This document shows, one piece after another, positions 17,415-55,560 of a stretch of 64,000 bases of DNA. This DNA is from Nitrospirota bacterium (GTDB taxonomy: Bacteria > Nitrospirota > Thermodesulfovibrionia > Thermodesulfovibrionales > JdFR-88): contig JAJYJK010000001.1 in assembly GCA_021789555.1 (NCBI GenBank), positions 76,581-140,580 on the forward strand. Direction: 5' to 3'. Below the pieces are notes generated by a model. That model was not told where the DNA came from. It did no database searches and saw only the letters and a list, made by a program, of their open reading frames with translations. How positions within the stretch are numbered: position 1 is the stretch's first letter; each line of letters starts with the position of its first letter. Position numbers and translations under genes: made by a program.

Positions 17415-17598
17415 TCTACCCTCCGGGACCGAAACTCAATAACGACGGCCGCCTGTCCTCTCCGCAGGCGCACGGCCGGGCGCCCCTTCACCCGGCGCAT
17501 ATGTTGCCGCAAAAAACCCCGTAGTTTACTATACCAGAAGCAGGCCGGTTTGTATAAAAAGCCTGCTTTTTTCCGGGTCCGGCGCTGTTTCCGCGGCC

Positions 17599-19232: not shown

Positions 19233-19251
19233 GCGGCCTCCCCTGGCATCG

Positions 19252-20757: not shown

Positions 20758-20867
20758 CCGCCAGCGGCCTGCGCCCCCCGAAAAGTCCGCGGGGGCGGGC
20801 AAGTTATTATGACCGTTTGCGCCCATATTATCCAGTGCGCCCGAATGGCTGTCCCGGCCATGGGCCA

Positions 20868-29500: not shown

Positions 29501-30195
29501 AAGCCGAGGGTTTCAGGGCGTGAAAGTTCGCCCCCGAAGGCCTCCACCCTGCAGAGGTAGAGGCCGGGCAGCCCGAGCCTCTGCGCTTCTTTTCTCCAGA
29601 GAGAAGTCGTCCCAAGCGGATCGGGAAGGTCGCTCACCCTGTAGACGAGCAGAAGCGGTTTCCCATTCACCCTTATGTATCTGTCGTCGCCAAAGACGCC
29701 GCAGAGCCACCGTATATGATTAAGGTCGTCCTCCTTGCTGTAATGCTGGTCAATGAGCACCTCGCTTGAGCGCCCGTCCCAGTTCCTCGTCCATTTCTCA
29801 TTGGCCCAGCAGAGGCAGAAGGGGAAATCGGGTTTGCCTGAGGCGAGCACCTCCTGCAAGGGACGCCCAAGCGGTCTCTTCCCGTTAAACCAGTAATGGT
29901 AATAGCAGAAACCGTAAACGCCGTACTGCCTGGCAAGCTCCGCCTGGGCCTCCCTGGTCTCGGCCAGGCGAAGGTCGTAAAATCCCAGGTCGGCGGGTAT
30001 ATGCGGCTGATAATGTCCGGGGAAAAGGGCTTTCGCCTTTGTAACATTCGTCCATTCGGTGAAACCCTTCCCCCAGGCGCTGTCGTTTTCCGGTATGGGA
30101 TGATACTGCGGAAGATAAAAAGCTATCAGTTTGGGATGACGCCTTTGCTTGTCCATGCCTGTCCTTTCAGCTGCGGATTCGCCCGTCTTTTTCAT
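26524..30195 (-). CDS. Multi-domain glycosyltransferase (1223 aa): WbsX/GH99-like - TPR - GT2 - GT-B (GT4-like)
   Basis: aa ~20-370 FYLPQYHPIPENDSAWGKGFTEWTNV...CWANEKWTRNWDG (WbsX-like). TPR-like helices ~aa 470-545. GT2 from aa ~563 (VVSIIIPVFNK...IIIDNASTDGT...DTDLC). C-terminal GT-B (GAGMKGKIGEAMAHGVPVVTTSIGAEGI). Confidence 0.8.
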   Translation of the reverse strand: MKKTGESAAERTGMDKQRRHPKLIAFYLPQYHPIPENDSAWGKGFTEWTNVTKAKALFPGHYQPHIPADLGFYDLRLAETREAQAELARQYGVYGFCYYHYWFNGKRPLGRPLQEVLASGKPDFPFCLCWANEKWTRNWDGRSSEVLIDQHYSKEDDLNHIRWLCGVFGDDRYIRVNGKPLLLVYRVSDLPDPLGTTSLWRKEAQRLGLPGLYLCRVEAFGGELSRPETLGFDASVEFQPDWTGLRPVANLLTDGNWVSSYRDAVELVCRKEIPPFKRFPCVTPSWDNTARKSTDAFIFLGATPSLYGKWLGHEIDTLEERNLDDDIVFINAWNEWGEGNHLEPDLKFGRAWLEATLDAIRAALPTGAEGAVRQAPPEGKYVEDEAAACLFLGSALKGSDAKAAGRYLDQSLRLTIKAMARNFHNGRALKFASGPESAKRDHAKILSGNSSRNSWVLDLTGMNYALLGDKLKALFCLRHAAAADGGNIAARKNLARLLQASGREKEAMQTYEEILSVSPRDADALLALGGLRLDKGQGARAESLFGRALEAEPAKQGQKREIPVVSIIIPVFNKVEYTRKCIEAIRRNTPCDLCEIIIIDNASTDGTKDYLKGLNEKMRVNVISNDANLGFTKACNQGAAAAGGKYIVFLNNDTEPQPKWLEYLVETIESDAEAGIAGPKFTYPDGRLQEAGGIIFNDGSGWNFGRGDDPSRPIYNYVKEIDYVSGACLLIRRSLLQQLNYFDERYSPGYYEDTDLCFGARSAGYKVVYCPLSLVIHHEGATSGTDLSAGMKKFQDINKEKFVIKWSGALKNQYPAGSGNVIPGSERQIEGNILIIDKYLPWFDRASGSLRLLSIIRLLKKQNYHITYIAREGRDQERYIRVLQRLGVEVYATDPQKLDRSGISGIESIDLKRILSDRFYETAFLSFYDVALQYLPEIRACSPGTKILIDTVDIHFVREQRMAELNSDKALLKKAEATKKDELYIYGKADAIITITDRDWDHIRDYLPGARHFVIPNIHCVDEGPIESDGRSGLIFVGNFNHLPNVDAVKYFLGEIFPKIKAKIPDMTFTIVGPLPPKEIASLQNKDIIVAGYVPETGPYLKRARISIAPLRYGAGMKGKIGEAMAHGVPVVTTSIGAEGIGLISGETALIADSADGFAECVVGLYSDDGLWRRIAINSREFIARHYSLEKIGMELADMLRSMQAEKASFQAVASGAGGEAVS

Positions 30196-30244: not shown

Positions 30245-33200
30245 TCAGACCTTCAAACAACTTTCATTTTTATTTTTATTTTCAAGCCGCTTCCTCACCG
30301 CCTCCAGCGCCCGACCGAGCGGGATTTCGGAGGCCGGCCCCTTTTCATTGAACAGGATTTCGGCCTTATCCCCTTCCGCGTAACAGCCGGTATAAGGCAT
30401 GTATCGCTCAAAGATGCGGTATCTGCCAAGCAGTATGACCCCCGGCGTCATAGTCGCGTTCGCCAGGTGGGCGGGCCCGCTGTCTACACCTGCGAAGAGG
30501 GCCGCCCGCCTGATGACCTCCGCCGTCTCAAGAAGCGATAATTTATTGCAGAGGTTTATGCCCGCGCCCTCCGGCAAAACGGGCCTTGCGCCGACTTCGA
30601 CAACCGGAATCCGTAATTCTTTTGCCATAAATGAGGAAAGCTGTGCCCATTTGGAGGCCGGCCAGTCCTTGGCCGCCTCGTTGGACTCGCAATGAAACAC
30701 GGCGTACCGTGCCGGAAGCGGCAATTGTCGTACCCGCCGGACTGCGGAATCCGTGATGTATACCCTGGGCTGCCTGTCCCCGACGGTAACGCCCGCGCCA
30801 AGTGAAAAGGCCTCAAGCAGGCTGCCGAAGGAAAAATAGTTTTCGACATTTATCTCGGTCCTGCCCCTTTTTTTCCTGAGCGGGACCCCGCAGACAGGGC
30901 ATATCCTGCCGTTTACATGAAGATCGAAGACCTCGTCGAAGATGCCGCTTTCGGCAATCAAAATCCACTCCGTAAGGCAGTCGACAACGAGCGTTTCATC
31001 GATGTTTGGATTGCTGTCGATCAATTCCCTGTAAGGTTCTCTTACCGCCCAGGTAATCCTGGCCTCGGGATATCTCTCTTTCAGGCTGCGCGATACGGGT
31101 TCACAGGCCACTATGTCGCCGAAATGCTCAGTAAGCCCGACAAGGACACTCTTTACAAAAGGAGAACCGGCGGTGTTCCCGGCGCTTCCGGCCGCCATGC
31201 CCGGCATCGGACTGCCGGCGGCTTCTGCATCATGGCCCAAATTCGGCTTGCTGCTTTTGCGCGCAAGGCCGGATCCCTTTTTGCGGCCTAAAACAATAAT
31301 CTCGTCCGGATTGAATCCACGGCACAGCTCGAACGCTTCCAGACCGGATGCCAGGAACAACCTTTTGATGCTGTCCCGTGTAAACAGAAAGAGATGCTCA
31401 TCGGGCTTGAACTGCATCCATTCCCTGCCCTCCCCGCTCCAACACGGGGTCTGGAATATGCATACGCCGTCGTCCTTGAGTCCGGCCGCGACCGCGGAAA
31501 GTCCTTCCACGGGAGAAGAGAAGTGCTCGATGACGTCAAATCCGCAAATAACGTCGAACTTGTCGTACGGCAAATTTACATCCGGAAACAGGCCGCCTAT
31601 GATGAAAGGCAGATTAAAGCGCTCGCGGGCGAAACTGCATGTCCGTTCGTCGACTTCCACGCCCACGACGTGCGCGGCCCCGCGCTCGCGGCAGTAATGC
31701 AGGAACCCGCCGTGGGCGCAACCGATTTCAAGCAGATGCTCCGGCCTGGGATTATATCTCGTGAGGATCTGATGCCAAAATGGAATTCGGTTCTTGAAGT
31801 CCATTTCCGCGCGCTCTTCTATCGGCGGGTAACCAAAATCCTTCGCTACATACTCGTGCCAGTAACCATCAAATGAATAGAACTCCCTCAGCCTTTCCTT
31901 TTCGGGAAATTCTTTTACCACATAAGTTCCGCATTCGACGCACCGCGAGTACGACGGATTCACTGCTTCCACGAGCCCGCCCCCGCACCAGCATTTCCGA
32001 CCGGGTAAAACTTCCGGGACTGACCCTTTTTCATTTGCGGGCATCTTGCCATCCCCTGATTTCGCAATCAGGAAAGAACATTCCGTCAGCATAACCTGAA
32101 CATCCGGGTTTAGTTTTTCTCCCCTGAGACCTTCGAGGACCCGGCGGGCGTAATCGGTCCTGCCGCTTTCAATCAGCTTTCTCGCGTAAACCGCCAGCGC
32201 GGCGGGCATATCCATGAACTGGCCGGCCCGTCTCGCAAGCTCCATGCCGCTTTCCTTCCTGCCGGCGCAAAGATGGGCCAGGGCCAGCGTGGAGAGGACC
32301 ATGGGGTGCGTGTTTTTGCTTTTTCCATTTTCAAGCAGTGCAATCGCGGCCCCGGCATCCCCTAGAAATACCTGGCAGCGGGCGTACAGATAGCTCGTCT
32401 CCAGGCAGTCAAGCGGCGACTTGAAGGCCTTCTCGATGACCTCTTTGGCCTCGCCGTAACGTGCCAGCGCGCACAGGGAGTCGGCGACCCCCAGGTGCGC
32501 CTCCAGGTGGCCGGGCCTGATGCGGGCGGCCTTCTTCCAGTTGTCAAGTGCGTCTTCAAACCTGCCCAGTTCCCCGGCCTGAACGGCCAGTTCCATGGCG
32601 GACTTGAAATCGTCCCCGCCTTTTTCAGAGAGTTTCGCCCTCCCCATTTCAAAATAGTCCCTGCCTTTTTCCTGCACCTTGTCCGCGAAGAGTTTCCCAT
32701 AATGGTGGATGGGTACGCCGCAGGGCGCGATTTTTATGCCCGCCTCCGCCAGGGAGTCCTCCACCACCTCGTGGACCGGGTTTTTGAAACGTATCCTCTC
32801 ATCGTTCGCAAAGAGCCTTACCTTAATGCTCGGCAGCCAGCCGGTGCCCGCCTGTTCCGGGTAAGCGCCGTCGTTGGCCCTCCAGCCCCAGATTGAGGGC
32901 GAGAGTATGTAATTTCTCGTAGTGAAGCTGTAGGCCGTCTTTTTCGTTTTCGCCCCGTCGATAAGCGCCCTGAGTTGCTTGCGGCTCGACGGGGATATGA
33001 CCTCGTCCGCGTCCATCACGAGTATCCAGTCGCCCGTGGCGCGGGATATGGAGAAATTCCTCGCCCCGGAGAAATTGAAATCCCCGGTCCACTCGAAATC
33101 GAAGACCTTTGCCCCGAGCGCCCTGGCAATTTCCTTCGTGCGGTCCCGGGAGCCCGTGTCCACGACTATCAGCTCGTCCGCAAGCGGCCTGAGATTCAGC

Positions 33201-35932
33201 AGCGCGCGCACGATGTTTTTTCCCTCGTTTTTCACTATCATGCAAATGGAAAGCGTCTCTCTATCTTTATTTTTGCCCGGACCGGACGCAAGTGTTCCCC
33301 CCGCCGGGCCGATAAGCTCCCTGATTTGAAGCGCTACGGAAAGCGCGGCGTCGTCAACCCCGAACGCCAAAAACGTCTCTTCAAGAACATTCAGCGCCTC
33401 CCCGAGCTGGTTGCACTTTAAGTGAAACTCCGCCAGGATGTGCCTTAAACGCCTTTTTAAAGGATAAAAGACGATGGCGTCCCTGACCGCCCTTATGCCC
33501 CTTTCAAATATGCCCTTATCGTCTTCAAGTGAAAGCTCCATGAGCGCGCCATAATAATTTGTGATTATGTCTTCCGTTGCCGGGGAAAGGGTGAAAGCCC
33601 TTTCAAAGAGCGCAAACGCCTCCTGTCTTTTGCCCTCCGCCCACCTTATCGCCCCGAGATTGGCATAGGCCTCTGCGTAACCGCTGTCGGCCTTTATGGC
33701 CTCTGCGAAAAACGACTCCGCGCCTTCGGGCATCCCCTTTTTGAATTGGATGACGCCCATCAGGTTTAGAGAGCTTGCCCGCCTATGGAGGTCAAGCGCC
33801 CTCCGGGCAAGCCTGTCCGCTTCTTCGACTTCCCCGAGGCCGTCCTTGCAGTATCCCCTTAACTCAAGCTCCATCGAATCCGGATTTGGCGGCGACTGGG
33901 CCGGGGACTGGCCCCCTGCGGGACTGGTCTCCCTGGGCATATTGGAGAGCAGCTCAAGGGCGTGCCTGAACCGGCCGTTATCGATGAGCATCCGGGCGAA
34001 CCGGTAATAGAGCCCCTTTACGAACGGCATATCACCAAGGGGGGAATTCTTGATGGTCTCGACAAATATCTTCACGGCCTTTTCCAGATCGCCCCTCTGG
34101 TCCGCCTCCACCGCGCCTTCAAAGAGTTTTAGCGCACGGAGTTTTTTTGCTTCGGGGCCAAGGGGGTCGATGGCCCGCCATTTTTCCTCGAAGGCCATTT
34201 TATCGGCCGCGTCATCTTCGGGCGTTTTCGATTTCGTCGTAGCCGGCCCTTCCCTGTAGAGAAGCGTATCGGCCGCCACGAAACACTTCGAGCCGTCGAG
34301 CACGGCGCGCTGCATGAGGTCCAGTATGGCAAAAGGCCGTGAACTGAAGACCTCGTCAAAAAAGCCCGTCTTTTCAAATAACGCGCGGGACAACAGAATG
34401 CAAAAATCATCGAGCCTCGGCACGGGAAAACGGCAGTGCATGTTTTTTTCCCTGAAGGCGCGCGCGTACTGCTGCCAGGAGGCGGTCCCGGTCTTTCCAT
34501 TGCCGCCTTCAGTGGTCTCCGGGATGGAGGGCAAGATGGCCTTTTGGGGTCCTTCCGCCCGGTTTGATATTGGACCAATTATAGGGGGTCCAACTATGGG
34601 GGGGCCGATTATAGGGGGCCCCGTTGTCGCGGAGCCGGCAAGGTCTCCGCCGGGTGCGGATTTCTCAACATTTTTCATGCATCCGAGCATCCCGGAGAGC
34701 CATCCTTCGCTTACTTCCACGCCGCCGGCCAGAAGGACTATATACTGGCCGGATGCCGCCCTGATTCCTTCATTGCAGAGGGCGGCAAAACAGGGGCCGG
34801 AGGTCTCAATAAACTTGTATCCCGGGTAGTCGGCCGCATGCTTTTTAAGCCATTTCGCGGCGCCATCCGCATAGTCGAAGCCGGTTAAAATTGTCTCATG
34901 GGGCTCGGGAGTATATTTGTCCAGGAGCCGGAGGCATCTCTGGATTTCCTTGAGCCGGTTTTCCTGTTTATTTCCGGGGGCCGCAAGCACAATCGAGACC
35001 ATACTGCCGCCCCGGGCATTCATGCGCGCCTGAGGGGACTGGTCCCCCCGGGCCCAGAAGGAGCCTGCCCAGGACAGTCCGGCGCTGAGATACCCGGCCT
35101 CGTCCTTTTTTGAGAATATATCGAATGCGGACTTTTCAAGCGCCGCCCTTTTTTCATCGTCTTCCACCAGTTTCCTGCACTCCGCTGCGATATTCCCATA
35201 GGGGACCGCGGCCAAGGCGTCACGGAGCCAGGGCGAAATCTCGGTCTTCTCATCACATTCGGCGACTACGGCCTTCCGGTTGGCAAGCAGATACGACACC
35301 CTGACCAGCTCGAAGATGCTCGATTCATAGAAATGGAGGTTTAGCACCACCTTCGCCCTGGCAATATAGGCATCGCGCGCGGCGCCATATACGTCAAACA
35401 GCGACTCCACGCTGAGACCTTCCAGGCTGAGGGCCTCCAGTATCTTTTTTCGCCGCTCGTTTACGGAGCCGTAGAACAGGACGTCGATGTCCTGCCGGGC
35501 GGCTGGACTGATGCGCGCCATCTCCGGCCTGAAACCTATCGGCACATGCAATACGGCGTCTCCATATCCCATCGCCCCGAGGGCCTCAATATTTCGCAGG
35601 CTGTAGTCCCAGACGGGAAAACGGCCGAGCAACGGCTTTATCCGCCCCCACATGGAAGACGGGCCGGCCTGCTCCAGGTTGTATATCACGGTTTTTTCCG
35701 GCAGCCGGGCCGCCTGCTCCGCAGAAAGCAGATGCGCCCCGAAGACAATATTCAGCGGACCAGTCCGCCCATCCTGAATAAAATTGTTCGTCCCAATTGC
35801 CGCCTCGTACCCGAGCGCCTGCAGTCCGTAAAAAACGGTCTCCGCCACCTCCTGGAAGGCCGCGCTGTGCGGATAACCTGGCGGCTGAACAATCGTAACG
35901 GCTGCCTTGCCCTTGACTGAATCTTTTCTCAA
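30245..35932 (-). CDS. Giant multi-domain glycan-assembly protein (1895 aa): CgeB-like GT - GT2 - TPR - GT2 - TPR - Zn-ribbon/SAM methyltransferase - GT9 (heptosyltransferase-like)
   Basis: TTG 35932 follows GGGAGGAG. GT2a starts ~aa 310 (MVSIVLAAPG). GT2b starts ~aa 893 (LSICMIVKNEGKN...VVDTGSRDRT...LVMDADE). The MTase sits at ~aa 1397 (LLEIGCAHGGF) after CWCGG...CVECG. GT9 starts ~aa 1594 (VLVGLTEHFGDIVACEP...GVDSGPAHLANA). TPR-like helical repeats lie between the catalytic domains. Confidence 0.75.
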   Translation of the reverse strand: MRKDSVKGKAAVTIVQPPGYPHSAAFQEVAETVFYGLQALGYEAAIGTNNFIQDGRTGPLNIVFGAHLLSAEQAARLPEKTVIYNLEQAGPSSMWGRIKPLLGRFPVWDYSLRNIEALGAMGYGDAVLHVPIGFRPEMARISPAARQDIDVLFYGSVNERRKKILEALSLEGLSVESLFDVYGAARDAYIARAKVVLNLHFYESSIFELVRVSYLLANRKAVVAECDEKTEISPWLRDALAAVPYGNIAAECRKLVEDDEKRAALEKSAFDIFSKKDEAGYLSAGLSWAGSFWARGDQSPQARMNARGGSMVSIVLAAPGNKQENRLKEIQRCLRLLDKYTPEPHETILTGFDYADGAAKWLKKHAADYPGYKFIETSGPCFAALCNEGIRAASGQYIVLLAGGVEVSEGWLSGMLGCMKNVEKSAPGGDLAGSATTGPPIIGPPIVGPPIIGPISNRAEGPQKAILPSIPETTEGGNGKTGTASWQQYARAFREKNMHCRFPVPRLDDFCILLSRALFEKTGFFDEVFSSRPFAILDLMQRAVLDGSKCFVAADTLLYREGPATTKSKTPEDDAADKMAFEEKWRAIDPLGPEAKKLRALKLFEGAVEADQRGDLEKAVKIFVETIKNSPLGDMPFVKGLYYRFARMLIDNGRFRHALELLSNMPRETSPAGGQSPAQSPPNPDSMELELRGYCKDGLGEVEEADRLARRALDLHRRASSLNLMGVIQFKKGMPEGAESFFAEAIKADSGYAEAYANLGAIRWAEGKRQEAFALFERAFTLSPATEDIITNYYGALMELSLEDDKGIFERGIRAVRDAIVFYPLKRRLRHILAEFHLKCNQLGEALNVLEETFLAFGVDDAALSVALQIRELIGPAGGTLASGPGKNKDRETLSICMIVKNEGKNIVRALLNLRPLADELIVVDTGSRDRTKEIARALGAKVFDFEWTGDFNFSGARNFSISRATGDWILVMDADEVISPSSRKQLRALIDGAKTKKTAYSFTTRNYILSPSIWGWRANDGAYPEQAGTGWLPSIKVRLFANDERIRFKNPVHEVVEDSLAEAGIKIAPCGVPIHHYGKLFADKVQEKGRDYFEMGRAKLSEKGGDDFKSAMELAVQAGELGRFEDALDNWKKAARIRPGHLEAHLGVADSLCALARYGEAKEVIEKAFKSPLDCLETSYLYARCQVFLGDAGAAIALLENGKSKNTHPMVLSTLALAHLCAGRKESGMELARRAGQFMDMPAALAVYARKLIESGRTDYARRVLEGLRGEKLNPDVQVMLTECSFLIAKSGDGKMPANEKGSVPEVLPGRKCWCGGGLVEAVNPSYSRCVECGTYVVKEFPEKERLREFYSFDGYWHEYVAKDFGYPPIEERAEMDFKNRIPFWHQILTRYNPRPEHLLEIGCAHGGFLHYCRERGAAHVVGVEVDERTCSFARERFNLPFIIGGLFPDVNLPYDKFDVICGFDVIEHFSSPVEGLSAVAAGLKDDGVCIFQTPCWSGEGREWMQFKPDEHLFLFTRDSIKRLFLASGLEAFELCRGFNPDEIIVLGRKKGSGLARKSSKPNLGHDAEAAGSPMPGMAAGSAGNTAGSPFVKSVLVGLTEHFGDIVACEPVSRSLKERYPEARITWAVREPYRELIDSNPNIDETLVVDCLTEWILIAESGIFDEVFDLHVNGRICPVCGVPLRKKRGRTEINVENYFSFGSLLEAFSLGAGVTVGDRQPRVYITDSAVRRVRQLPLPARYAVFHCESNEAAKDWPASKWAQLSSFMAKELRIPVVEVGARPVLPEGAGINLCNKLSLLETAEVIRRAALFAGVDSGPAHLANATMTPGVILLGRYRIFERYMPYTGCYAEGDKAEILFNEKGPASEIPLGRALEAVRKRLENKNKNESCLKV

Positions 35933-36958: not shown

Positions 36959-37984
36959 TCACTTCAGAAAATCAAGCAGGGACTGCGAGACGGAAGTCGC
37001 GGTCGTCTCCCTTATGGACTGCAGGATCGCCTGGTACTTCGCCAACTGGGTGGTCGTGGCCGCCAGGTCGTCGTCCTGTACGTTCGAAAGGAGGCTCTGG
37101 GCGTTAAGCGTATCATTTTCTATGGAGTTTTCCTGGGCGGTAAGCCTGTTTTGCCTCGCGCCGATATCGGCGCTCACGCTCGTCGCCTGGCCTATGGCGT
37201 CGTCAAATGGGGTCAGGAGGGCATTTATCCTCATGGTGTTGTTGCTGTTGAGCGCATCCCCCAGCAGCCCGGTAAGCTGCATGAAATTGGAGAAGCTGAA
37301 TTTGTCGAGGACGTTGCCGCCACTATCCGTGATTTGGACATTTATCGTCGTGTCGCCAGCCGGCGGCGGATAGCTGGCCATCGAATACGTGACAGTCGTC
37401 CCGCCGGCCTGCTGGGCGGTCACGGGGCCGCCAAGGGTATATGCGAAGGCGGTGCTCCCCGGCACGTTCGCGGGAAGCAACTGCGAGCCCGATATATTGG
37501 CGTTCATCACGTTTGAGTCCCCGTTATAGTCGTACGTGGAGGGGTCAAATGCGCTCACGTTCGTCTTTAAACCCGCAAACACGCTCTGGCCGTCCGCGGT
37601 CTTCGTATTTGCGAACCCAAGCAGTTCGTCCCTTATCTGGTAGACCTGCTGGGCCATCGCGGCCCTGTCCGAGCTGCCGGCCGTGCCGTTTAGCCCCTCA
37701 AGCGCAACCTCCTTGGCGTTATTGAGCGCGTCCAGGGTGGACGACATCGCCGTCGATGCGTCACTTAGAAGCGTAGTGGCGCTGTCGATGCCGGACTTGT
37801 ACCGGTTGTCCTGGCTCAGTTCCATGTTATAGTCCATGGCGCTTATCACGCTGATTACATCATCGGAGTTCTTGCTGAACTTCTTTCCGGAGGAAAGCTC
37901 GTTCTGGAGCTGGCTTATCGTGGAGATGTCCTGGTTCATGTAATTCGAGAGCTGGTCGTAAATTGAATAGGATCCTATTTTCAT
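36959..37984 (-). CDS. flgL: Hook-filament junction protein FlgL (HAP3)
   Basis: Flagellin-like N and C termini (…QLQNELSSGKKFSKNSDD…; …TQLAKYQAILQSIRETTA…). It has a 4-nt overlap with flgK. Confidence 0.85.
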   Translation of the reverse strand: MKIGSYSIYDQLSNYMNQDISTISQLQNELSSGKKFSKNSDDVISVISAMDYNMELSQDNRYKSGIDSATTLLSDASTAMSSTLDALNNAKEVALEGLNGTAGSSDRAAMAQQVYQIRDELLGFANTKTADGQSVFAGLKTNVSAFDPSTYDYNGDSNVMNANISGSQLLPANVPGSTAFAYTLGGPVTAQQAGGTTVTYSMASYPPPAGDTTINVQITDSGGNVLDKFSFSNFMQLTGLLGDALNSNNTMRINALLTPFDDAIGQATSVSADIGARQNRLTAQENSIENDTLNAQSLLSNVQDDDLAATTTQLAKYQAILQSIRETTATSVSQSLLDFLK

Positions 37985-45765: not shown

Positions 45766-46329
45766 CTACTTGCCGCGAATCAGGCCCACGGCAAAGACCC
45801 ATCCGGTCAGGGGGAATTGTTTGAATACAACGGTCCTGCTGCCCTCAAACTCGTATCTCACAACGCCTTCGGGTTTTGAGAGCATCACGCGCACTTTTTC
45901 ACTCAGGCTCCGGCTGCCCATGTCCGCTGGATAGGCAAACAGCAGTGATGCCTTCCTGTGCAGGCAGGTCTGTCCGGTTGAGTTCAAGGCGTAAAAGACC
46001 ATATCCTCCGGCAGGGCCATTTTTTCATCTATCATCCGGCTTAGCTCCTGGACCGAAAGGGATGCGCCGAGGGCCCCGATAATCCTGCCGTTTCTTTTCA
46101 CCGGGACCGCGACGATGGCCGTCCGCTTTCCCGTGGACTTGCTGATAACCAGCCGGCCGATTACATCCTTGCCCGCAATGAGCCCTGGGAAATACGCGCG
46201 GTTCCGCAGACTGAGGCCCGTGAGACCCTTCTCGACCGTGTAATAGGACCCGTCGGGCCGCGCGAACCAGAGGGCGGCGGCCCCTATGCCGCTTCCGCCG
46301 AAACGGGCAATCACTCCCGTGCTCTTCAT
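45766..46329 (-). CDS. Stand-alone Cache-like sensor-domain protein (no TM or output domain seen)
   Basis: RNRAYFPGLIAGKDVIGRLVISKSTGKRTAIVAVPVKRNGRIIGALGASLSVQEL is a Cache-type ligand-module pattern. ATG 46329 follows GGAGG. Confidence 0.55.
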   Translation of the reverse strand: MKSTGVIARFGGSGIGAAALWFARPDGSYYTVEKGLTGLSLRNRAYFPGLIAGKDVIGRLVISKSTGKRTAIVAVPVKRNGRIIGALGASLSVQELSRMIDEKMALPEDMVFYALNSTGQTCLHRKASLLFAYPADMGSRSLSEKVRVMLSKPEGVVRYEFEGSRTVVFKQFPLTGWVFAVGLIRGK

Positions 46330-46655
46330 GGCGCACACCTCCGCCTTCCCCCGCGCCGGTCGCCCTCCGGGCGGCGCGCGTCCTGTTTCGGGGCGGTTTA
46401 TAGAGAACATTACCTGTTATTACCGTAACACATATCCATACGGTGTCAACTCAAGGTTGTGAAAGGGAACTGAAAAGTTGTGAAGGAGAACCGAATAAAA
46501 AATCATTTAAAGACAGGGCGCGTGCAACCGCGTTATGTACTCATGGCCTGGACAGGAGGAGGAAGCAATGCGCTAAAATTCACTGAAACTTCGGAGAGGG
46601 AGAAACCATCCGGGGGCGGGCCGGAGGCGGACGCGAAACAAAAGGCGCTGCGCGG

Positions 46656-47213: not shown

Positions 47214-48422
47214 TTACATGAAATGCATCTTTTCATTGAGGAAGGTCTCTTTGAACTTGGAAGCGATTTCGCCGTATCTTCCGTCATCGATCTTGAGGAG
47301 CCTCTGGAGTTCCTTTTCGCCCAAATCCAGCTCCGGCATCGGGGACTTATACCCGATTCCGAGCCTTGTGCAAAGCGCATCCGCGAGGGCGACAATCAGG
47401 CACAGCTCGCGCACGTCGCCCTGTACCGCCTTATCAAAGCTTTTCCAGCTATGGTGGTACAGGATGGCGCCGGAGAGGATGTCCGGGAAGCCCCATTTCT
47501 CGCCGAGGAGCGATCCCACCTCCGCATGGCCGAAGCCGAAGACCTCGGTTTCGACCGTATGGAAGGGCACTTTCTCCTCCTGCACGGACTGCGCGAGAAA
47601 CAGATACCTCTCGGGCTGATTGCTGTTCATTACGAGCTTGCCGGTGTCATGCAGAAGGCCGGCGATAGCGGCCTCCTCCCTGCCCGAGCGTATTTCCGCC
47701 GCTATGGCGCCGGAGGCAAGCGACACACCGAGGTTGTGTTCCCAGAGCTTTTCCTCCAGGAGGCCGAAAGGCCTGTAGATGTCGCGGGTGGAAACGGCAA
47801 GCGTCACGGAACGGATAGTGTTGAAACCGAGGACCGAGACGGCATCGGAGATCGTGTCGACATTCTGGCGGAACCGGAAAAAGACCGAATTGGCCATCTG
47901 CAGTATCCGGGTTGTAAGGGAGCTGTCGGCCATGATGGCATCCTTCAGGTCCTCAATGGTCGTATTTTCCTGGCCTATGAGGGCCAGTATCTTCGCCGCC
48001 ACCAGGGGGACAGCCGGCAATTTGGCGCTCTGCAGTATGAGGCTCCTCGTATCAACCGGCCCCTCCATCGATTGGAGCGCCGCCTTGATGTCCTCGAAAT
48101 TGAATGGTTTCTTCACCAGTCTTATTTTTTTGGCCTTTATCTGCCGTTCGACGCCCTCATCCATGACGGCACCGGTCAGCAGGACAAACCTGCCCGCAAG
48201 CCTGGGGTCCAGTCCGCTTATTTTTTCGAATATCTGCAGGCCGTTTGTTCCCTGCAGGGTCAGGTCGCAAAAAACGGCGCTATAAAAACGTTTGCCGGCG
48301 AGGTGTTTCCCCGCCTCCTGCCAGCCCGGCGCCACGTCCGCCTCGTAGCCCAGGAAATCCCCATACAAATCCAGTATCTCGGTTATGTCGGGATCGTCAT
48401 CTATGATCAGGAGTCTGGCCAT
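47214..48422 (-). CDS. Response regulator REC - HDOD domain protein
   Basis: REC motifs LLIIDDD and AVFCDLTLQG. HDOD: LPAVPLVAAKILALIGQENTTIEDLKDAIMADSSLTTRILQMANSVFF...VLGFNTIRSV...LHDTGKLV. Confidence 0.85.
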   Translation of the reverse strand: MARLLIIDDDPDITEILDLYGDFLGYEADVAPGWQEAGKHLAGKRFYSAVFCDLTLQGTNGLQIFEKISGLDPRLAGRFVLLTGAVMDEGVERQIKAKKIRLVKKPFNFEDIKAALQSMEGPVDTRSLILQSAKLPAVPLVAAKILALIGQENTTIEDLKDAIMADSSLTTRILQMANSVFFRFRQNVDTISDAVSVLGFNTIRSVTLAVSTRDIYRPFGLLEEKLWEHNLGVSLASGAIAAEIRSGREEAAIAGLLHDTGKLVMNSNQPERYLFLAQSVQEEKVPFHTVETEVFGFGHAEVGSLLGEKWGFPDILSGAILYHHSWKSFDKAVQGDVRELCLIVALADALCTRLGIGYKSPMPELDLGEKELQRLLKIDDGRYGEIASKFKETFLNEKMHFM

Positions 48423-48481: not shown

Positions 48482-49546
48482 TCATTTGCATACGTACCCG
48501 ATTATCGCGCCGGGGATATCCTCCGCGGGCAGGACATCATCGGCGATGCCGGCCTCCACGACGGCCTTCGGCATGCCGTAGATAACGCTGGTCTTCTCGT
48601 CCTGGGCGATGATCCTGCCGCCCGCGCTTTTGACCCCCCTTAGACCTGCCAGGCCGTCGTTTCCCATGCCTGTGAGTATCACGCCGACGGCCCTTCTCTG
48701 GAAATGGGCGGCAACCGAGGCCATCAGCGCGTCAACCGACGGACGGTAGATGAAATCCCCGCCCTCCTCGACTGAGATGAACGGCCTTGGCATCCCGCTT
48801 GCCACCCTCATATGCCCGCGGCCGGGCGCTATATAGACAACGCCGTTTTTGACGCTTTCGCCGTCTTCGGCCTCTTTTACCGAGACGTTGCTTATCTGGT
48901 CCAGCCGTTCGGCAAAGGGTTTCGTGAAGTAGGGCGGCATGTGCTGGCTGATCAGAACGGGGACCGGGAAATCCCTTGGCAGGCTGGGTATTATCTGCTG
49001 GAGAATTTTTGGCCCGCCCGTGGAGGCCCCGATTGCAACAATGTCCACCTTTGCGCCGTTCGCGCAGCAAAAGACATGGTGGGACGCGACGATGTGGGGG
49101 AGGGCTATCGCGGGTGCAGGGGGCGGCCGCATAAAGTACCCCTTCCTGCCCAGGTGCTTTATCTTCTCCCTGAGCACCTCCCTTATCTTTACTATGTCCA
49201 TGCTGGTGCCGGAGAGGTTCTTGGGGATGAAGTCCACGGCCCCCAGCTCCAGGGCGTGAAGGGTGATCTTTGCCCCCTCCACCGTCTGCGCGCTGACCAT
49301 TACGACCGGCATGGGGGTCTCACTCATGATCCGCTTCAGGGCCTCGATGCCGTCCATCTTCGGCATCTCCACGTCCATCGTTATGATATCGGGTTTCAGG
49401 GCCGCAGCCTTCTCCACCGCCTCATAGCCGTCGGCCGCCGTGCCCACCACGTTTATCCCGGGGTCGGAGCCGAGCATCGTGGTGAGCGCCTTCCTCATGA
49501 ACGGGGAATCATCGACCACGAGCACCCTTACCATGCCTGCCTCCAT
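48482..49546 (-). CDS. cheB: Chemotaxis methylesterase/deamidase CheB (REC + CheB_methylest)
   Basis: VLVVDDSPFMR, IITMDVEMPKMDG, IGASTGGP and GMGNDG. The alternative start is ATG 49534. Confidence 0.9.
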   Translation of the reverse strand: MEAGMVRVLVVDDSPFMRKALTTMLGSDPGINVVGTAADGYEAVEKAAALKPDIITMDVEMPKMDGIEALKRIMSETPMPVVMVSAQTVEGAKITLHALELGAVDFIPKNLSGTSMDIVKIREVLREKIKHLGRKGYFMRPPPAPAIALPHIVASHHVFCCANGAKVDIVAIGASTGGPKILQQIIPSLPRDFPVPVLISQHMPPYFTKPFAERLDQISNVSVKEAEDGESVKNGVVYIAPGRGHMRVASGMPRPFISVEEGGDFIYRPSVDALMASVAAHFQRRAVGVILTGMGNDGLAGLRGVKSAGGRIIAQDEKTSVIYGMPKAVVEAGIADDVLPAEDIPGAIIGYVCK

Positions 49547-49576: not shown

Positions 49577-50776
49577 CTAGAAGCCCAGCCCGGAAAGCAT
49601 CTGGTCCACCCCCGCCTGAGACACCTTCTCCGGGGCCTGAGCGAGGGAGGGACTTTGTTCTATCTTTACGCCAAAGTTGGCTATGAGCCCCATGAGTTCC
49701 TTTTCCACCTCGCCCACAAGCCCTATCACCTTCTTCAGCGCCTGCCCGGTCAGGTCCTGGAAAGACTGCGTCGTAAGGACCTCGGTGAGGTCGTCCTCGA
49801 GCCTGTTCTTGAAACTCTTCAGATAAGCGACCGTCTCCTCCGGCTCCTTTATCTGCCTTATATGAGAGGAGAGCTCGTCGATGCTCAGGATGTATTTTTC
49901 GACGAAGGCCATCGTCTTGTTGGCCGCCTCCTCCGTCTTGTCGATCACGTACTTCAGACGGTCGACTGCGTGGGGCATCTCCGTAGTGGCCATGTCCTTC
50001 AGTTTCGGGTCGATTGCGTCGTTGAAATTCTTGAGGGAGTCGTGGAGTTTCCGGGTCACCTTGCCCACCTCGTTGTACAGCTCGCCCCGGCCTTTCTTGA
50101 TGATCCTCTGAATGACGGCCTCGGCCTTTTCGTAATCGCGCGCGTCCAGGGAGTCCAGGAATTCCATCACCTCCGTCATGATCCCGTCGAGGTCGCCCGA
50201 TAATTTTTTCCCGAAGAACTCCTTGGCGTCATGGACTTCCTTCAACTTCATCTCCCCCGCCATGGTCTGAACGCTCCTCGTGACCTCGACGCTGCCGTCG
50301 TTGCCGATCTGCTTTACCTCAAGGGCTTCATCCTCGAAGAGGGCCACGTCCTCGAACGGGATAAGTTTCTTGGGGTCCAGGAGGACCAGCAGCTTGTCTT
50401 TTATCTTCGCCACGCCCTTTATCTGCTCCATCTTCTCGGAGAAGAACCTCTCGGGGTGCTCGACGGCGCCGCCGTCAATCTCGACGACGCCCGTGATGCC
50501 GTCCACCAGGACGCCGAAAGTGATCTTGCCGCTTGAAATGACGATGATCTTGCCGCCGGAGGCCCCGCCGTTGGAGCCGTTCGAGCCGTTCATGTTAAGG
50601 AGGCTTTTAAGGTTCACTATCACTATGATGCTGCCCCTGAGATTCGTAACGCCCTCTATGTAAGCCGGCGCCTGCGGCATCCGCGTGATCACCGGGGCGT
50701 TTAGTATCTCACGGACCTTGAGGATGGGTATGGTGTATTCCATCGACCCGAGTTTAAACCCTATGTATTGCTCCAT
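49577..50776 (-). CDS. CheW-CheZ fusion protein (N-terminal CheW-like domain, C-terminal CheZ phosphatase)
   Basis: The N-terminus EYTIPILKVREIL...AYIEGVTNLRGSIIVIVNLK...FGVLVDGITGVVEI is CheW-like. The C-terminus has the CheZ active-site motif SFQDLTGQALKKV and the CheY-P-binding tail AGVDQMLSGLGF (compare E. coli QDFQDLTGQVIKR and QVDDLLDSLGF). Confidence 0.8.
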   Translation of the reverse strand: MEQYIGFKLGSMEYTIPILKVREILNAPVITRMPQAPAYIEGVTNLRGSIIVIVNLKSLLNMNGSNGSNGGASGGKIIVISSGKITFGVLVDGITGVVEIDGGAVEHPERFFSEKMEQIKGVAKIKDKLLVLLDPKKLIPFEDVALFEDEALEVKQIGNDGSVEVTRSVQTMAGEMKLKEVHDAKEFFGKKLSGDLDGIMTEVMEFLDSLDARDYEKAEAVIQRIIKKGRGELYNEVGKVTRKLHDSLKNFNDAIDPKLKDMATTEMPHAVDRLKYVIDKTEEAANKTMAFVEKYILSIDELSSHIRQIKEPEETVAYLKSFKNRLEDDLTEVLTTQSFQDLTGQALKKVIGLVGEVEKELMGLIANFGVKIEQSPSLAQAPEKVSQAGVDQMLSGLGF

Positions 50777-50822
50777 GTCCTACCTCCTGGCAGTTTTTCA
50801 TTTTCCATCTTCACTTTCATTT

Positions 50823-52736
50823 TCACGTGTTCACGTGCTCTTTATCGAAGAGATTGCGGGCGATATAGCCCAGGTCTATTATGAGTATCACCCTGCCGTC
50901 GCCCGAGATAGTGGCGCCCAGAATCGAGGGCGCAGCCGACCCGGAGCCGGTGATGGATTTTATCACCACCTCCTGAAGCCCCAAAAGCTTGCCCACGCCT
51001 ATGCAAAACCTGCTGTCGGCAACGGCGACCACAATAATGTACCTGTCTGCCCGGCCCGGCTGCCCGTCTGACCCCCCATCCGAAGACTCGGGGGACTGGT
51101 CCGGGGACTGGTCCCCTCGGGATAAAATCTCGTGCGCCGCGTATTGACGGATCTGGCTTAGTTGTCCGGAGTGGTCTTCCAGCAGCCAGGCGAGCTCGAA
51201 ATACGGATAGACCTTCCCCCTGATATTGATGACTTTTTTGTCCACGAGGTCTTTTATCTCGCTGCCGGCCATCTTCATCGTCTCATCGACAAGGGTAAGG
51301 GGGATCGCGTAAACCGAGCCCTTCACCTCGACGAGGAGGGCATGGATTATGGCGAGGGTAAGCGGCAGGCTTATCCTGAAAGTGGTGCCCGCGCCCCGCT
51401 TGGTCATGACCTCGATGAAGCCGTTTAATTTGCCTACGTTGTTTTTGACCACGTCCATGCCCACGCCCCGGCCGCTTATTTCGGTGGCCACATCATTCGT
51501 TGAAAGCCCGGGCAGGAATATGAGGTTCACCGCGGCATCGAGGCCAAGATCCGCGGCCTCCGCCTCCGTTATGAGGTCCTTCTGGACGGCCTTTCTCTTT
51601 ACCTTTTCGACGTCGATGCCCTTGCCGTCGTCGGCCACCTCGATGACTATCTGGTTGCCTTTCTGGCTGGCGTTTATCGATACCACGCCCCGTCCGGGCT
51701 TGCCCCTCGCCACCCTTTCAGCCGAAGGCTCGATGGCATGGTCCAGGGCGTTTCTTATTATGTGCACCATCGGGTCCGCGATGTGCTCTATGACCGATTT
51801 GTCCACCTCGGTCTGCTCCCCGGATATCCTGAGTTCGACGTCCTTGCCGAGGGAGGCCGACAATTCCTTCACGAGGCGCGGGAATTTCCCGAACACTTTT
51901 TTGAGCGGCTGCATCCTCATCTTCATCACGGCGGCCTGCATGTCGGAGGTGAGGAGGTCCAGGAAAGAGACGGCCTCGAAGAGGTTTTCCATCTGCGGGT
52001 CCGAGGAATATTTCTGCTCGAGACCGCCCGCGAGGTTTAGGAGCCTGTTTCTTATCAGCACCACCTCGCCGGTGAGGTTCATGACCTGGTCCACCTTCTC
52101 CACGCTTATACGCAGGGTCTGGATGGAATCGTCCTTCTTGTCCGCCGGGGAGGCCGTTGCCGCCGCGCCCTTTTGGGGATGGCCATCCCCCGGATGATTT
52201 GCATCCGCCGCGGGGCGCGGGGCCGGCGCCGCGTCCGCGATGACCGCCGGCCTTGCCTTTATCTCTCCCGGGTCTGTTTGCCTTTCGGCCTGCCCGGCAG
52301 GCCCCGCCCCCTGTGCGGGATGGCCGGCCTGCAAGGGTTTTGCGGCCGTGAGGGCGGCCTCAAGCCCGGCAAGCAAGGCGGCCGTCTCCGTCCCGTCCTG
52401 CCCCTCATTGCCCTTTGTCCTTATATGTTTCAGAAGGACCCGCACCATATCGAAGCTCTTGAGTAGGACGTCTATAAGCGGCCGGGCGAGGGCTATCTCC
52501 TTGTCGCGGACCTTTTTAAGTATCGTCTCGGCCCGGTGAGAGACGTCCACGATCTGCTGGAAGCCCAGGAAGCCCGCGGCCCCCTTTATCGTGTGCATGC
52601 CCCTGAATATATCGTTGATGGTCTCCTGGTCGAAACCCTTGTCGTCCATTTCGACCAGCTTCGGGTCTATGCGGTCCAGGGTCTCCTCGGCCTCGGTCAC
52701 AAAATCCGCTATTATCTCTTCCATGTCGTCGGGCAT
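50823..52736 (-). CDS. cheA: Chemotaxis histidine kinase CheA (P1-linker-P3-P4-P5; no obvious P2)
   Basis: Hpt motif FRGMHTIKGAAGFLGF. HATPase motifs (HIIRNALDHAIE, DDGKGID, GRGVGMDVV). A C-terminal CheW-like domain. P1 is followed by a Pro/Ala/Gly-rich low-complexity linker. Confidence 0.9.
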   Translation of the reverse strand: MPDDMEEIIADFVTEAEETLDRIDPKLVEMDDKGFDQETINDIFRGMHTIKGAAGFLGFQQIVDVSHRAETILKKVRDKEIALARPLIDVLLKSFDMVRVLLKHIRTKGNEGQDGTETAALLAGLEAALTAAKPLQAGHPAQGAGPAGQAERQTDPGEIKARPAVIADAAPAPRPAADANHPGDGHPQKGAAATASPADKKDDSIQTLRISVEKVDQVMNLTGEVVLIRNRLLNLAGGLEQKYSSDPQMENLFEAVSFLDLLTSDMQAAVMKMRMQPLKKVFGKFPRLVKELSASLGKDVELRISGEQTEVDKSVIEHIADPMVHIIRNALDHAIEPSAERVARGKPGRGVVSINASQKGNQIVIEVADDGKGIDVEKVKRKAVQKDLITEAEAADLGLDAAVNLIFLPGLSTNDVATEISGRGVGMDVVKNNVGKLNGFIEVMTKRGAGTTFRISLPLTLAIIHALLVEVKGSVYAIPLTLVDETMKMAGSEIKDLVDKKVINIRGKVYPYFELAWLLEDHSGQLSQIRQYAAHEILSRGDQSPDQSPESSDGGSDGQPGRADRYIIVVAVADSRFCIGVGKLLGLQEVVIKSITGSGSAAPSILGATISGDGRVILIIDLGYIARNLFDKEHVNT

Positions 52737-52743
52737 ATCGTTT

Positions 52744-53133
52744 TTATCCCCTCTTTTCGAATATCTTCTCGAGCTTTTCCTTCAGTATCTCCGCGGTGAA
52801 GGGTTTCACCACGTAATTGCTGACGCCCGCCTTGATCGCCTCGATGACCTTGTGTTTTTCGGCCTCGGCGGTGACCATGAGAAAGGGCAGGTCCTTGAGG
52901 TCCTGGTTTGCCCGGACTTTCTTCAGCAGGTCGAGCCCGTCCATGTTGGGCATGTTCCAGTCGCATACGACGAACTGGAAACCTTCGCCCGTGAGCTTTG
53001 AATAGGCCTGCATCCCGTCTTCCGCCTCCTCGATCCTTTCAAACCCGAGCTGCCTCAGGATGTTCTTCACAATGCGCCTCATTGTGGAGAAATCGTCGAC
53101 CACGAGTACCTTCATATTGGTGTCAATGGCCAT
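52744..53133 (-). CDS. cheY: Chemotaxis response regulator CheY
   Basis: [20 protein letters not shown]...[12 protein letters not shown]...LMVTAEA...YVVKPFT closely follows the E. coli CheY pattern. Confidence 0.9.
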
Positions 53134-53514
53134 TTACGCCTCCTCGCCGAAGATGTTCTTCATTATGTTCCTGACGTTCTTCACCACGTCATCGGAGCTT
53201 ACCGGCTTCATCATGAACCCGTTGACCCCGGCGGCGTATGCCCTCTTTTTTTCCTCGGCGTCCTTCTCGGTTGTGACCATCAGGACCGGGATATGGGCGC
53301 GGGACGGGTCCGCTTTCAGCGTCTTTATGAGCTCTATGCCGTCCATGAACGGCATGTTCAGGTCGGTTATGATCATGTTTATGTCGCCCTGGGCGACTTT
53401 CGACATCGCGTCGAGGCCGTTTTCCGCGGTCGCCACGTCAAACCCCTTCGACTTGATATAGAAGCTGAGGAGCTTCCTTGTGGTGCGGCAGTCATCCACT
53501 ATCAGGACTTTCAT
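53134..53514 (-). CDS. Second CheY-like single-domain response regulator
   Basis: MKVLIVDDCRTTRKLL...IITDLNMPFMDG...LMVTTE...FMMKPV. ATG 53514 lies 1 nt after the cheR stop. Confidence 0.85.
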   Translation of the reverse strand: MKVLIVDDCRTTRKLLSFYIKSKGFDVATAENGLDAMSKVAQGDINMIITDLNMPFMDGIELIKTLKADPSRAHIPVLMVTTEKDAEEKKRAYAAGVNGFMMKPVSSDDVVKNVRNIMKNIFGEEA

Positions 53515-53515
53515 T

Positions 53516-54331
53516 TCACGTTGTCCTCTGGTAAACAAGGGTATTATTGAATATCAGGGGTTTGAAGGCCCTGGTCACGTCGTGCAGGCTCTCGGACTTC
53601 CCTATGAAGAGATACCCCCCCGGCCTGAGGCTGTCATACAGGCCGGAGACGACCTTCCTCTTTGACCGGGCGTCAAAATAGATGAGCACGTTGCGGCAGA
53701 AGATGACGTCCATGCCGGTGAGGAATTTCCTGCCGTCCGCGAGGTTTATATTCATGAACCTGACGGAGTTTCTTATCTCCGGGTCAAGCTCATAGAGCTG
53801 TCCGCCGTTTTTGAAGTATTTCGCCAGATAGCAGCCGGGCGTGTTCCTGATGGAGTAGGAATTGTAAAGTCCCCTTCTGGCGGCCTCAAGCGTCTGGTTG
53901 CTGATGTCCGAGGCGTAGATGCTGAGCCTGGCCGCGGGGTGTTTCTCCCTGAGCACGATGGCCATGGTGTAAGGCTCCTCGCCGGTTGAGCACGCACTGG
54001 ACCAGAACGAAACGCCCTTCATGCCGGAACGCCCCAGCAGGTCCGGCAGCACATGCTCCACGAGCGCCGCGAAATGCTCCGGCTCCCTGAAAAAAGAGGT
54101 CTCATTAGTGGTGATTGAGTCAAAAAGACAGTTGAGCTCCTCGGCGTTCCGGCCGGAGGACAGCAGTTCAAGGTACTGGTCGAACCCGGCCAGTCCCCTG
54201 GCCCCAAGCCTCGGGGAGAGTTTCTTTTCGACCAGGTATTTCTTGGTGTCGGGTATGAAGATGCCGCTTTCCTCATATATAATGTCCCTCAGCCGCCTGA
54301 AGGTATCCTCTCGAAGGACAGTCTCCGCCAC
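53516..54331 (-). CDS. cheR: Chemotaxis methyltransferase CheR
   Basis: TNETSFFREPEHF, WSSACSTGEEPYT and FCRNVLIYFD. Confidence 0.9.
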   Translation of the reverse strand: MAETVLREDTFRRLRDIIYEESGIFIPDTKKYLVEKKLSPRLGARGLAGFDQYLELLSSGRNAEELNCLFDSITTNETSFFREPEHFAALVEHVLPDLLGRSGMKGVSFWSSACSTGEEPYTMAIVLREKHPAARLSIYASDISNQTLEAARRGLYNSYSIRNTPGCYLAKYFKNGGQLYELDPEIRNSVRFMNINLADGRKFLTGMDVIFCRNVLIYFDARSKRKVVSGLYDSLRPGGYLFIGKSESLHDVTRAFKPLIFNNTLVYQRTT

Positions 54332-55560
54332 TAGTCAATTTTCTCCCCGTCCGGCCGGATGCTCTGCCCTCCTTCAGGCCCGGATTTTCCGCCTTTGGCC
54401 CCGGCGGCCTCGCGTATCTGCCTGAGCGTCTTGACGCTGGCGTTTCTTATGTCATGGATATTGCTGTCCTGCATCTGCTCTACCAGCGGGGCAGCTTCGG
54501 CGCAGCCCATCTCTCCAAGCAGCCCCAGGAGGAAGGCAAGCCCCCTGAATTTCAGACGGGCATCCCTTAAAAGACCGATAAGCGCGGGGGAGCAGTCGAA
54601 TCTCGCCAGAGCGCTCCTGATCTCCTCAAGCTTGCCTTCGCAGTCCGGGACGGATGGGTCCAGCGAGCCGGCCGCGTCGATGATGTGGAAAAGCGCCCTT
54701 TCCTCCCTGAACGCGGAGAGCCCCATGAGGGCCAGCATCTTGTCGTCCCAGTCCCCGCCTGTAAAGAGTTCGAGCAGCAGCTCCCTGATCCCCTTCACCT
54801 CCGGGATAACGCCCGCCGAAAGCAGGCTTTTGACGGTCAGCATCCTTTCCAGATCAGATATCCCCTCCCACTCGAGGTGCTCATTCAGGGCGGCAATGGC
54901 CCTGGCGGTCTCGATCGAGGCCAGACAGGATATGGCCCCGCTCCTGATGACCTCGCTGGGGCTCATCAGCAACTCGGCCACGGCCTCAACCGACCCGTCG
55001 TCCTTTATCGCGGCGAGGGCCTCGAGGACCGCAAACGAGACCCACTCGGTGTCCCTGAGGGCCTCGACAAGCGCCGGCACGGCCCCGGACATGCGGAGCG
55101 CGCCGATGGCCTTTGCGGCCGAAACCCGGACGTTCGGGTTCGGGTCCCGCTGCAGCAGTTCCTGGAGCAGCTCCGGCGCCGGGCACTCGCCGATTTCGCA
55201 TATCAGGTCCAGGGCGAATTTCCGTATATCGTCGTCCTTGTCCCTCATAAGAGGGCCAAGCATCGGAACAACCACCTTGCCCAGCTCCTGGAGGATTATG
55301 ACGGCCATGTTCCTTGTGACGACATCGTCCCTCAGAAGCGGCAGCACCATGTAGGCGGCGGCCTCCCCTCCGATAGCGATCAGGGAGCGCATGGCCGCGT
55401 CCTGCACGCCCTGGTTTCCGTCCTTCAGGGCCTTTATGAGCGGCAGCACGGCCCTCTCGTCGCCCATCGAGAGCTGTTCGGCGGCCTCGCGCCTTTTGGA
55501 AGAATTGGCCGCCCCCAGGTCCCACACCAGGGCCCTTATCTTCTGGCTTGTCAAGTTCAT
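54331..55560 (-). CDS. HEAT-repeat (PBS-lyase-type) protein in the che operon
   Basis: Repeated R..A...L..IG...A...L...L.D motifs, e.g. KRREAAEQLSMGDERAVLPLIKALKDGNQGVQDAAMRSLIAIG. Confidence 0.75.
   Translation of the reverse strand: MNLTSQKIRALVWDLGAANSSKRREAAEQLSMGDERAVLPLIKALKDGNQGVQDAAMRSLIAIGGEAAAYMVLPLLRDDVVTRNMAVIILQELGKVVVPMLGPLMRDKDDDIRKFALDLICEIGECPAPELLQELLQRDPNPNVRVSAAKAIGALRMSGAVPALVEALRDTEWVSFAVLEALAAIKDDGSVEAVAELLMSPSEVIRSGAISCLASIETARAIAALNEHLEWEGISDLERMLTVKSLLSAGVIPEVKGIRELLLELFTGGDWDDKMLALMGLSAFREERALFHIIDAAGSLDPSVPDCEGKLEEIRSALARFDCSPALIGLLRDARLKFRGLAFLLGLLGEMGCAEAAPLVEQMQDSNIHDIRNASVKTLRQIREAAGAKGGKSGPEGGQSIRPDGEKID

Follow-up and report, generated by a model that had tools for sequence, protein, structure and literature searches.

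The window, by which we mean the whole 64-kb stretch of DNA analyzed here, contains a flagellar and chemotaxis operon in which one gene encodes both a CheW adaptor domain and a CheZ phosphatase domain, and this architecture is conserved in relatives that mostly belong to the Nitrospirota. We consider it probable, as the best overall explanation, that a single ancient fusion produced this protein and that its CheW half docks the CheZ phosphatase in the receptor array, beside the kinase. The domains, motifs, conservation, single origin, and operon context on which this account draws were observed directly, and from them we infer array insertion, dimerization, phosphatase activity, and substrate choice.

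Domain architecture and conserved residues

The fusion gene (positions 49577..50776, minus strand) is a single ORF encoding 399 aa plus a stop codon. It starts with ATG, and a strong Shine-Dalgarno motif (AGGAGG, 50783-50788, minus strand), read straight from the sequence, lies 6 nt 5' of that start. [quoted passage not shown] Likewise, phmmer searches against the PDB aligned ~150 aa of the N-terminal half with E. coli CheW (2HO9, E = 1.1e-19) and the C-terminal half with E. coli CheZ (1KMI, E = 1.9e-10). The enterobacterial CheW and CheZ equivalog models of NCBIfam also match the fusion, both far under their cut-offs (74 bits against 257 for the CheZ model, NF008368), and the detailed properties of the two halves may therefore differ from those of enterobacterial CheW and CheZ.

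Pfam, the alignment to 2HO9, invariant columns, and Foldseek together place the CheW domain at aa 3-145 (50342..50770; this and the following segments are on the minus strand). It is followed by a short, acidic junction at aa ~146-160 (50297..50341), the length of which varies among fusions, and by a region at aa ~161-228 (50093..50296) that comprises a VxTMAGE...DAKEFF element and short helices. The CheZ core (aa 229-367, 49676..50092) is predicted to form a long helical hairpin (257-308 and 313-367) and carries the catalytic DxxxQ motif (D341...Q345, 49742..49756), which is invariant in all aligned fusions. A flexible tether of variable sequence with pLDDT <50 (aa 368-386, 49619..49675) then leads to an amphipathic C-terminal peptide (aa 387-399, QAGVDQMLSGLGF, 49580..49618), a putative CheY-P-binding element recognized by its conservation, by AF2, and by alignment to E. 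coli CheZ.

The CheZ motifs quoted in the original prediction align with the E. coli protein as claimed. More specifically, VGKVTRKLHDSLKNF aligns with IGSLTRMLRDSLREL and SFQDLTGQALKKV with DFQDLTGQVIKRM, D341 and Q345 fall on E. coli D143 and Q147, and the C-terminal peptide has its counterpart too. When the CheZ halves of 21 fusions were combined into a profile, it aligned at 111 bits with residues 13-214 (the last residue) of E. coli CheZ, in a sequence that agrees with the 1KMI segments. This alignment takes in SQxxVDDLLxxxGF at the C terminus, the peptide corresponding to E. coli residues 201-214; a phmmer search with the 37-aa C terminus of the fusion alone matched nothing meaningful. 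Across the 21 diverse fusions (down to 29% identity) and 67 closer ones, D341 and Q345 never vary, and the peptide, QxxVDxLLxxFGF, hardly varies. Judged by these residues, the CheZ half is predicted to retain all that is needed for catalysis and CheY-P capture.

E. coli CheZ (PF04344; 1KMI) and the fusion have in common the DxxxQ motif, the adjacent xxxFQ motif, and the C-terminal CheY-P-binding peptide, and the E. coli layout of helical hairpin, flexible linker, and C-terminal helix is the one predicted for the CheZ half of the fusion. The fusion differs in its whole N-terminal CheW domain and an extra N-terminal element of ~65 aa, whereas the insertion at the E. coli hairpin tip (~96-114), with its CheA-short-binding aromatic pair, is absent from the fusion family.

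In the CheW half, residues E23, I24, G42, R47, and G88 are invariant in the 21 diverse fusions. Ten positions of E. coli CheW that we take to be CheA- and receptor-binding residues (I33, V36, E38, I39, G57, R62, G63, G99, V105, and V108) correspond to I18, V21, E23, I24, G42, R47, G48, G88, I94, and V97 of the fusion. All 10 are invariant in the 67 closer fusions and, except for I94, invariant or at least 90% conserved in the diverse ones. Because these positions are conserved, the CheW half is most likely array-competent. Compared with classical CheW (PF01584; E. coli 2HO9 and 6S1K chain C), the fusion conserves the NLRG arginine and the hydrophobic groove residues, but it carries a C-terminal enzyme of ~250 aa and belongs to a clade of its own, ~36% identical to co-resident classical CheW.

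The AF2 model of the fusion is of moderate quality (pLDDT, 63.6; pTM, 0.33). It has beta-strands at aa 2-133 (pLDDT, ~60-79) followed by short helices, the two hairpin helices of the CheZ half (pLDDT, ~60-75), disorder at aa 368-386, and a final helix at aa 387-396. A Foldseek search with this model matched the N-terminal half to CheW of the E. coli core signaling unit (6S1K_C; E = 3.7e-12, target TM 0.80, rmsd 3.2), the CheW fold being a beta-barrel of two subdomains. The search did not retrieve the CheZ fold (1KMI), whose long helical hairpin forms a four-helix bundle on dimerization.

We also considered whether an internal start at M172 releases a free "CheZ-short", an idea prompted by an AGGAG sequence 10 nt upstream of M172 in the window. 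A start codon is present at that position in only 35 of the 58 scorable fusions, and an SD-like motif accompanies it in only 7; we therefore rejected the internal start as a conserved feature of the fusions.

Operon context and the number of CheW adaptors

All genes of the operon lie on the minus strand, in the order fliR-flhB-flhA-flhF-flhG-fliA, a HEAT-repeat protein gene, cheR (53516..54331), cheY1 (53134..53538), cheY2 (52744..53133), cheA (50823..52736), the fusion gene, cheB (48482..49546, 30 nt 3' of the fusion gene), a REC-HDOD protein gene, DUF6115, and flgF/G/A/H/I/J/N/K/L, and the intergenic spacing within the che block is -23 to +59 nt. Two CheY paralogs are present, as had been noted: CheY1 is a divergent paralog (39% identical to E. 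coli CheY), and CheY2, at 63% identity, is likely the motor-binding CheY and the main CheZ substrate. CheA has Hpt, dimerization, HATPase, and CheW-like P5 domains. The claim that it lacks a P2 domain was borne out; aa 95-210, the P1-P3 linker, are low-complexity Ala/Pro/Gly sequence with no Pfam match even at E <= 1. Besides the fusion, we found no cheZ, cheC, or cheX among the genes annotated in the window.

The P5 domain of CheA is split into two Pfam stretches by a ~45-aa low-complexity insertion rich in Ser, Asp, Gly, and Gln (aa ~515-560). Directly 3' of cheB, the gene for the REC-HDOD/HD protein (47214-48422, minus strand) occupies the same place in many relatives, at times in duplicate; its product may be a second output or a sink of the chemotaxis pathway. 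The gene for a 409-aa HEAT-repeat protein (54331-55560, minus strand) separates fliA from cheR, here and in virtually all related loci (L002-L063); it is a conserved, unexplained member of the flagellar/chemotaxis operon. Between DUF6115 and flgF lies a 214-aa orphan ORF (45766-46410, minus strand) with only a partial dCache_1 domain. It has no MCP signaling domain and no counterpart in the syntenic relatives L002 and L004, and it may be a chemoreceptor remnant or a lineage-specific insertion.

Elsewhere in the window, two giant multidomain ORFs (26524-30195, 1223 aa, and 30245-35932, 1895 aa; minus strand) combine WbsX, GT2, GT1, and GT9 glycosyltransferase, methyltransferase, and TPR domains. 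They are flanked by a flagellin gene (25448-26266) and by a second gene with Flagellin_N/C domains (36959-37984, probably flgL), followed by flgK, and they likely form a flagellin glycosylation island. A second signaling block (16545-22914, minus strand) adjoins motA/motB (17599-19232); it encodes a PAS histidine kinase, a REC-GAF-HD(HD_5) protein, and two more receiver proteins, and may take part in motility-linked regulation. In addition, a formate-dehydrogenase-like molybdopterin oxidoreductase (74-1156 and 1169-2788, plus strand) is split by an in-frame TGA (1154-1156) within NCARV*HAPTV. This context resembles the classic selenocysteine site (CARVUHGPS in FdhF), and the two stretches are probably one Sec-containing gene, not two ORFs.

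Beyond the window, among the 80 best loci in GTDB species representatives, ~73, mostly Nitrospirota/Thermodesulfovibrionia, contain both halves in a single ORF. The operon flhBAFG-fliA-HEAT-cheR-cheY-cheY-cheA-WZ-cheB (WZ being the fusion gene) is common to these loci, and magnetotactic carriers are found among them (Ca. Magnetominusculus, Ca. Magnetobacterium, and Ca. Magnetomicrobium). Both Pfam domains are likewise combined in one protein of 387-416 aa in all 120 of the 90%-identity clusters among the matches listed; these derive from independent NCBI, JGI, ENA, and Logan assemblies, and those with a name are labelled Nitrospirota or Thermodesulfovibrionales. An exhaustive search of 50%-identity representatives yielded roughly 15-18 distinct fusion clusters, down to ~31% identity. 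One divergent fusion, in a Thermodesulfobacteriota-labelled MAG, lies in the order cheY-[WZ]-cheA-cheB-motA-motB, and another adjoins a divergently transcribed cheY.

The order fliA-cheY-cheZ-cheA-cheB is that of Pseudomonas and Vibrio, and it is matched by five loci with cheY-[WZ]-cheA-cheB (L067, L075, L077, L078, and L082, from magnetotactic Nitrospirota and a Thermodesulfobacteriota-labelled locus). Relative to these, the positions of cheA and the fusion gene are swapped in the lineage of the window.

The fusion had been described as the only CheW adaptor of its cluster. This is correct within the 64-kb window, where a profile search (--max, every ORF of at least 40 aa) found no other CheW-type domain. 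The fusion matched at E = 4.5e-56, and the only other match was a weak one to CheA-P5; this search replaced a single-sequence phmmer search that was too insensitive and had missed CheA-P5. For the family, the description fails: a classical stand-alone cheW (148-170 aa) occurs within 10 kb in 35 of the ~73 fusion loci, immediately 3' of the fusion in 15 of these 35, with the order cheB-cheW among the others. Because a classical cheW so often shares the cluster, the fusion family would generally represent an extra, cargo-carrying auxiliary adaptor that acts beside classical CheW, the latter being missing from the cluster in the sub-lineage of the window.

The fusion could instead be the organism's only CheW, performing the core receptor-kinase coupling itself and bringing a phosphatase to every CheW site. 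We rate this as rather unlikely. The profile search of the 64 kb and the conservation of the presumed CheA- and receptor-binding residues agree with it, as do ~18 related loci (the closest relatives, L001-L004, and ~14 others) in which, as in the window, cheB leads straight to the REC-HDOD gene without an intervening cheW. These loci include four contigs of 1.1-2.8 Mb, and when the nearest stand-alone CheW was used as query, no match on those megabase contigs was among the top 120 listed, all of ~68% identity or more. However, almost half of the fusion loci keep a classical cheW, and this protein is highly conserved (mean identity, 62%), which suggests that it is the core coupler. We give still less credence to a related proposal, namely that a dimeric CheZ bundle with two CheW domains could cross-link two CheW lattice positions, making the fusion more than a tether, and that it may be the only adaptor in lineages which, like this one, have lost the cluster cheW. 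If true, this would mean an array with a phosphatase at every coupling site, possibly with phosphatase activity that depends on receptor state and with a changed array geometry, as in the case of the spirochete CheW-CheR-like protein.

Origin of the fusion and further alternatives

Only the CheZ part was found at five of the 80 best loci. One of them (L065) is truncated at a contig end. The other four (L066, L071, L072, and L074) encode a genuine unfused CheZ of 245-256 aa that shares 51-53% identity with aa ~163-399 of the fusion, and L066, L071, and L074 have it in a fliA-cheY-cheZ context. These unfused relatives begin a few residues before the VxTMAGE…DAKEFF element, and it follows from this start that the fusion captured a whole CheZ, that aa ~161-228 are its ancestral N terminus, and that the true junction is the short acidic segment at aa ~146-160. 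We had also considered aa 146-228 to be linker throughout, which is ruled out since the unfused relatives contain aa ~161-228. The unfused 245-aa CheZ (L071 and L074, also L066; Desulfobacterota-labelled MAGs) has the VxTMAGE element as in the fusion but no CheW domain, and it likely represents the pre-fusion state.

The fused CheW domains make up one monophyletic group, apart from a clade that holds the 35 stand-alone CheWs of these loci. On average, identity is 52% among fused domains, 36% between fused and stand-alone ones, and 33% between fused domains and E. coli CheW. Since the fused domains group together and apart from the stand-alone clade, the sequences indicate one old fusion event rather than recent duplications. 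In this event, a complete CheW adaptor would have been joined to the N terminus of a complete ~245-aa CheZ.

The junction bears on the possibility that the CheW half relays receptor state to the CheZ half, so that the array would set kinase and phosphatase reciprocally. The covalent link is direct, with a junction of only ~15 aa, and the adjacent N-terminal element of CheZ (aa 161-228) is conserved, both of which speak for such coupling. Yet the same element is found in unfused CheZ and hence did not evolve for coupling, and the alignment of fusions reveals that the junction varies in length, reaching ~80 aa in magnetotactic relatives; this variation speaks against a rigid allosteric relay. 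We regard receptor regulation of the phosphatase as improbable.

A structural scaffold with a dead enzyme would have a precedent in the CheW-CheR-like protein of spirochete F2 systems (Muok et al. 2020, PMC7666581). That protein joins classical CheW and CheA-P5 as a third kind of ring component and keeps the array ordered, and the catalytic residues of its CheR-like domain are altered. As in the fusion, its N-terminal CheW domain is followed by a linker and the domain of a chemotaxis enzyme, and it is conserved in its lineage and encoded with cheA. Its CheR is degenerate, whereas the CheZ of the fusion has intact catalytic residues: family-wide, the two catalytic residues, D and Q, and the CheY-binding peptide show little or no variation, and the annotated genes of the window offer no other cheZ, cheC, or cheX. 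A dead enzyme is thus very unlikely.

The sole cheW/cheZ split among the 80 loci (L061, a long-read MAG on a Microflora Danica contig) consists of two adjacent ORFs that arise from a one-base deletion in an A-run (…GATACAAAAAACTGA…, L061 10370-10395), and its CheW falls within the clade of the fusions. Such a homopolymer frameshift calls for caution in automated architecture counts. That a sequencing or assembly frameshift artificially joined separate cheW and cheZ genes, the outcome named at the start as the one to look for, has next to no chance of being true and was rejected: nothing in the window speaks for it, the split relative is itself a frameshifted fusion, and the in-frame fusion is conserved across the independent assemblies of all 120 listed clusters as well as in the ~73 genome loci.

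Placement of the phosphatase and its implications

We return to the account in which the CheW half docks the phosphatase beside the kinase. In it, the CheW half most likely takes up a CheW position in the chemoreceptor array, contacting CheA-P5 and/or the receptor tips; it could do so in CheW-only rings alone, or it might instead bind CheA away from arrays. The CheZ half, predicted to be catalytically competent and presumably dimeric, would be held next to the kinase, where it would dephosphorylate CheY-P, chiefly the canonical CheY2, captured by the tethered C-terminal peptide. In E. coli, CheZ co-localizes with the kinase via CheA-short, and the same outcome is presumed here, with a covalent tether substituting for that recruitment.

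The most economical reading, then, is that covalent attachment to CheW replaces non-covalent recruitment in placing the phosphatase beside the kinase, and this reading is strengthened by the lack of the E. coli hairpin-tip CheA-short-binding segment in this CheZ lineage. The earlier suggestion that localization is hard-wired by fusion appears reasonable. Known bacteria place the phosphatase non-covalently, E. coli through CheA-short, Campylobacterota through ChePep, and alpha-proteobacteria through unknown partners. The original prediction had the consequence of co-localization reversed in stating that it sharpens CheY-P gradients. Indeed, modeling on the data of Vaknin and Berg shows that co-localized CheA and CheZ produce uniform CheY-P and a sharper dose-response, whereas cytoplasmic CheZ produces gradients (PMC2673030).

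[quoted passage not shown] CheV (CheW-REC) is a CheW-like auxiliary array adaptor with a module that handles CheY-phosphate (background in part from PMC4742279). Its cargo is a receiver domain, that is, a phosphate acceptor, whereas the cargo of the fusion is a predicted phosphatase.

The architecture had been thought not to be described, which is nearly right. CheW-like domains fused to CheZ are mentioned by Vass et al. 2022 (bioRxiv 10.1101/2022.05.07.491035) in one sentence on rare Pfam architectures, IMG annotates many members with both functions, and CheZ has been reported in Nitrospiria (PMC12887009). In the literature searched for "CheW-CheZ" or for CheZ with Nitrospirae, Thermodesulfovibrio, or Magnetobacterium, we found no description and no functional or dedicated comparative study, and the literature searched likewise yielded no studies of Nitrospirota chemosensory arrays. 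The CheW-CheZ architecture is catalogued in databases and otherwise uncharacterized. PGAP names the protein only "protein phosphatase CheZ", and because this name hides the adaptor domain, genomes can appear poorer in CheW-type adaptor domains.

The position of the CheY-P phosphatase relative to the kinase shapes both the gain of chemotaxis and the spatial uniformity of the signal. A lineage-wide CheW-CheZ fusion is in this sense a natural experiment in obligatory co-localization and fixed stoichiometry. It extends the short list of CheW adaptors that carry a cargo by a member with intact catalytic residues, and it provides a testable handle on array composition in the Nitrospirota, the magnetotactic members included.
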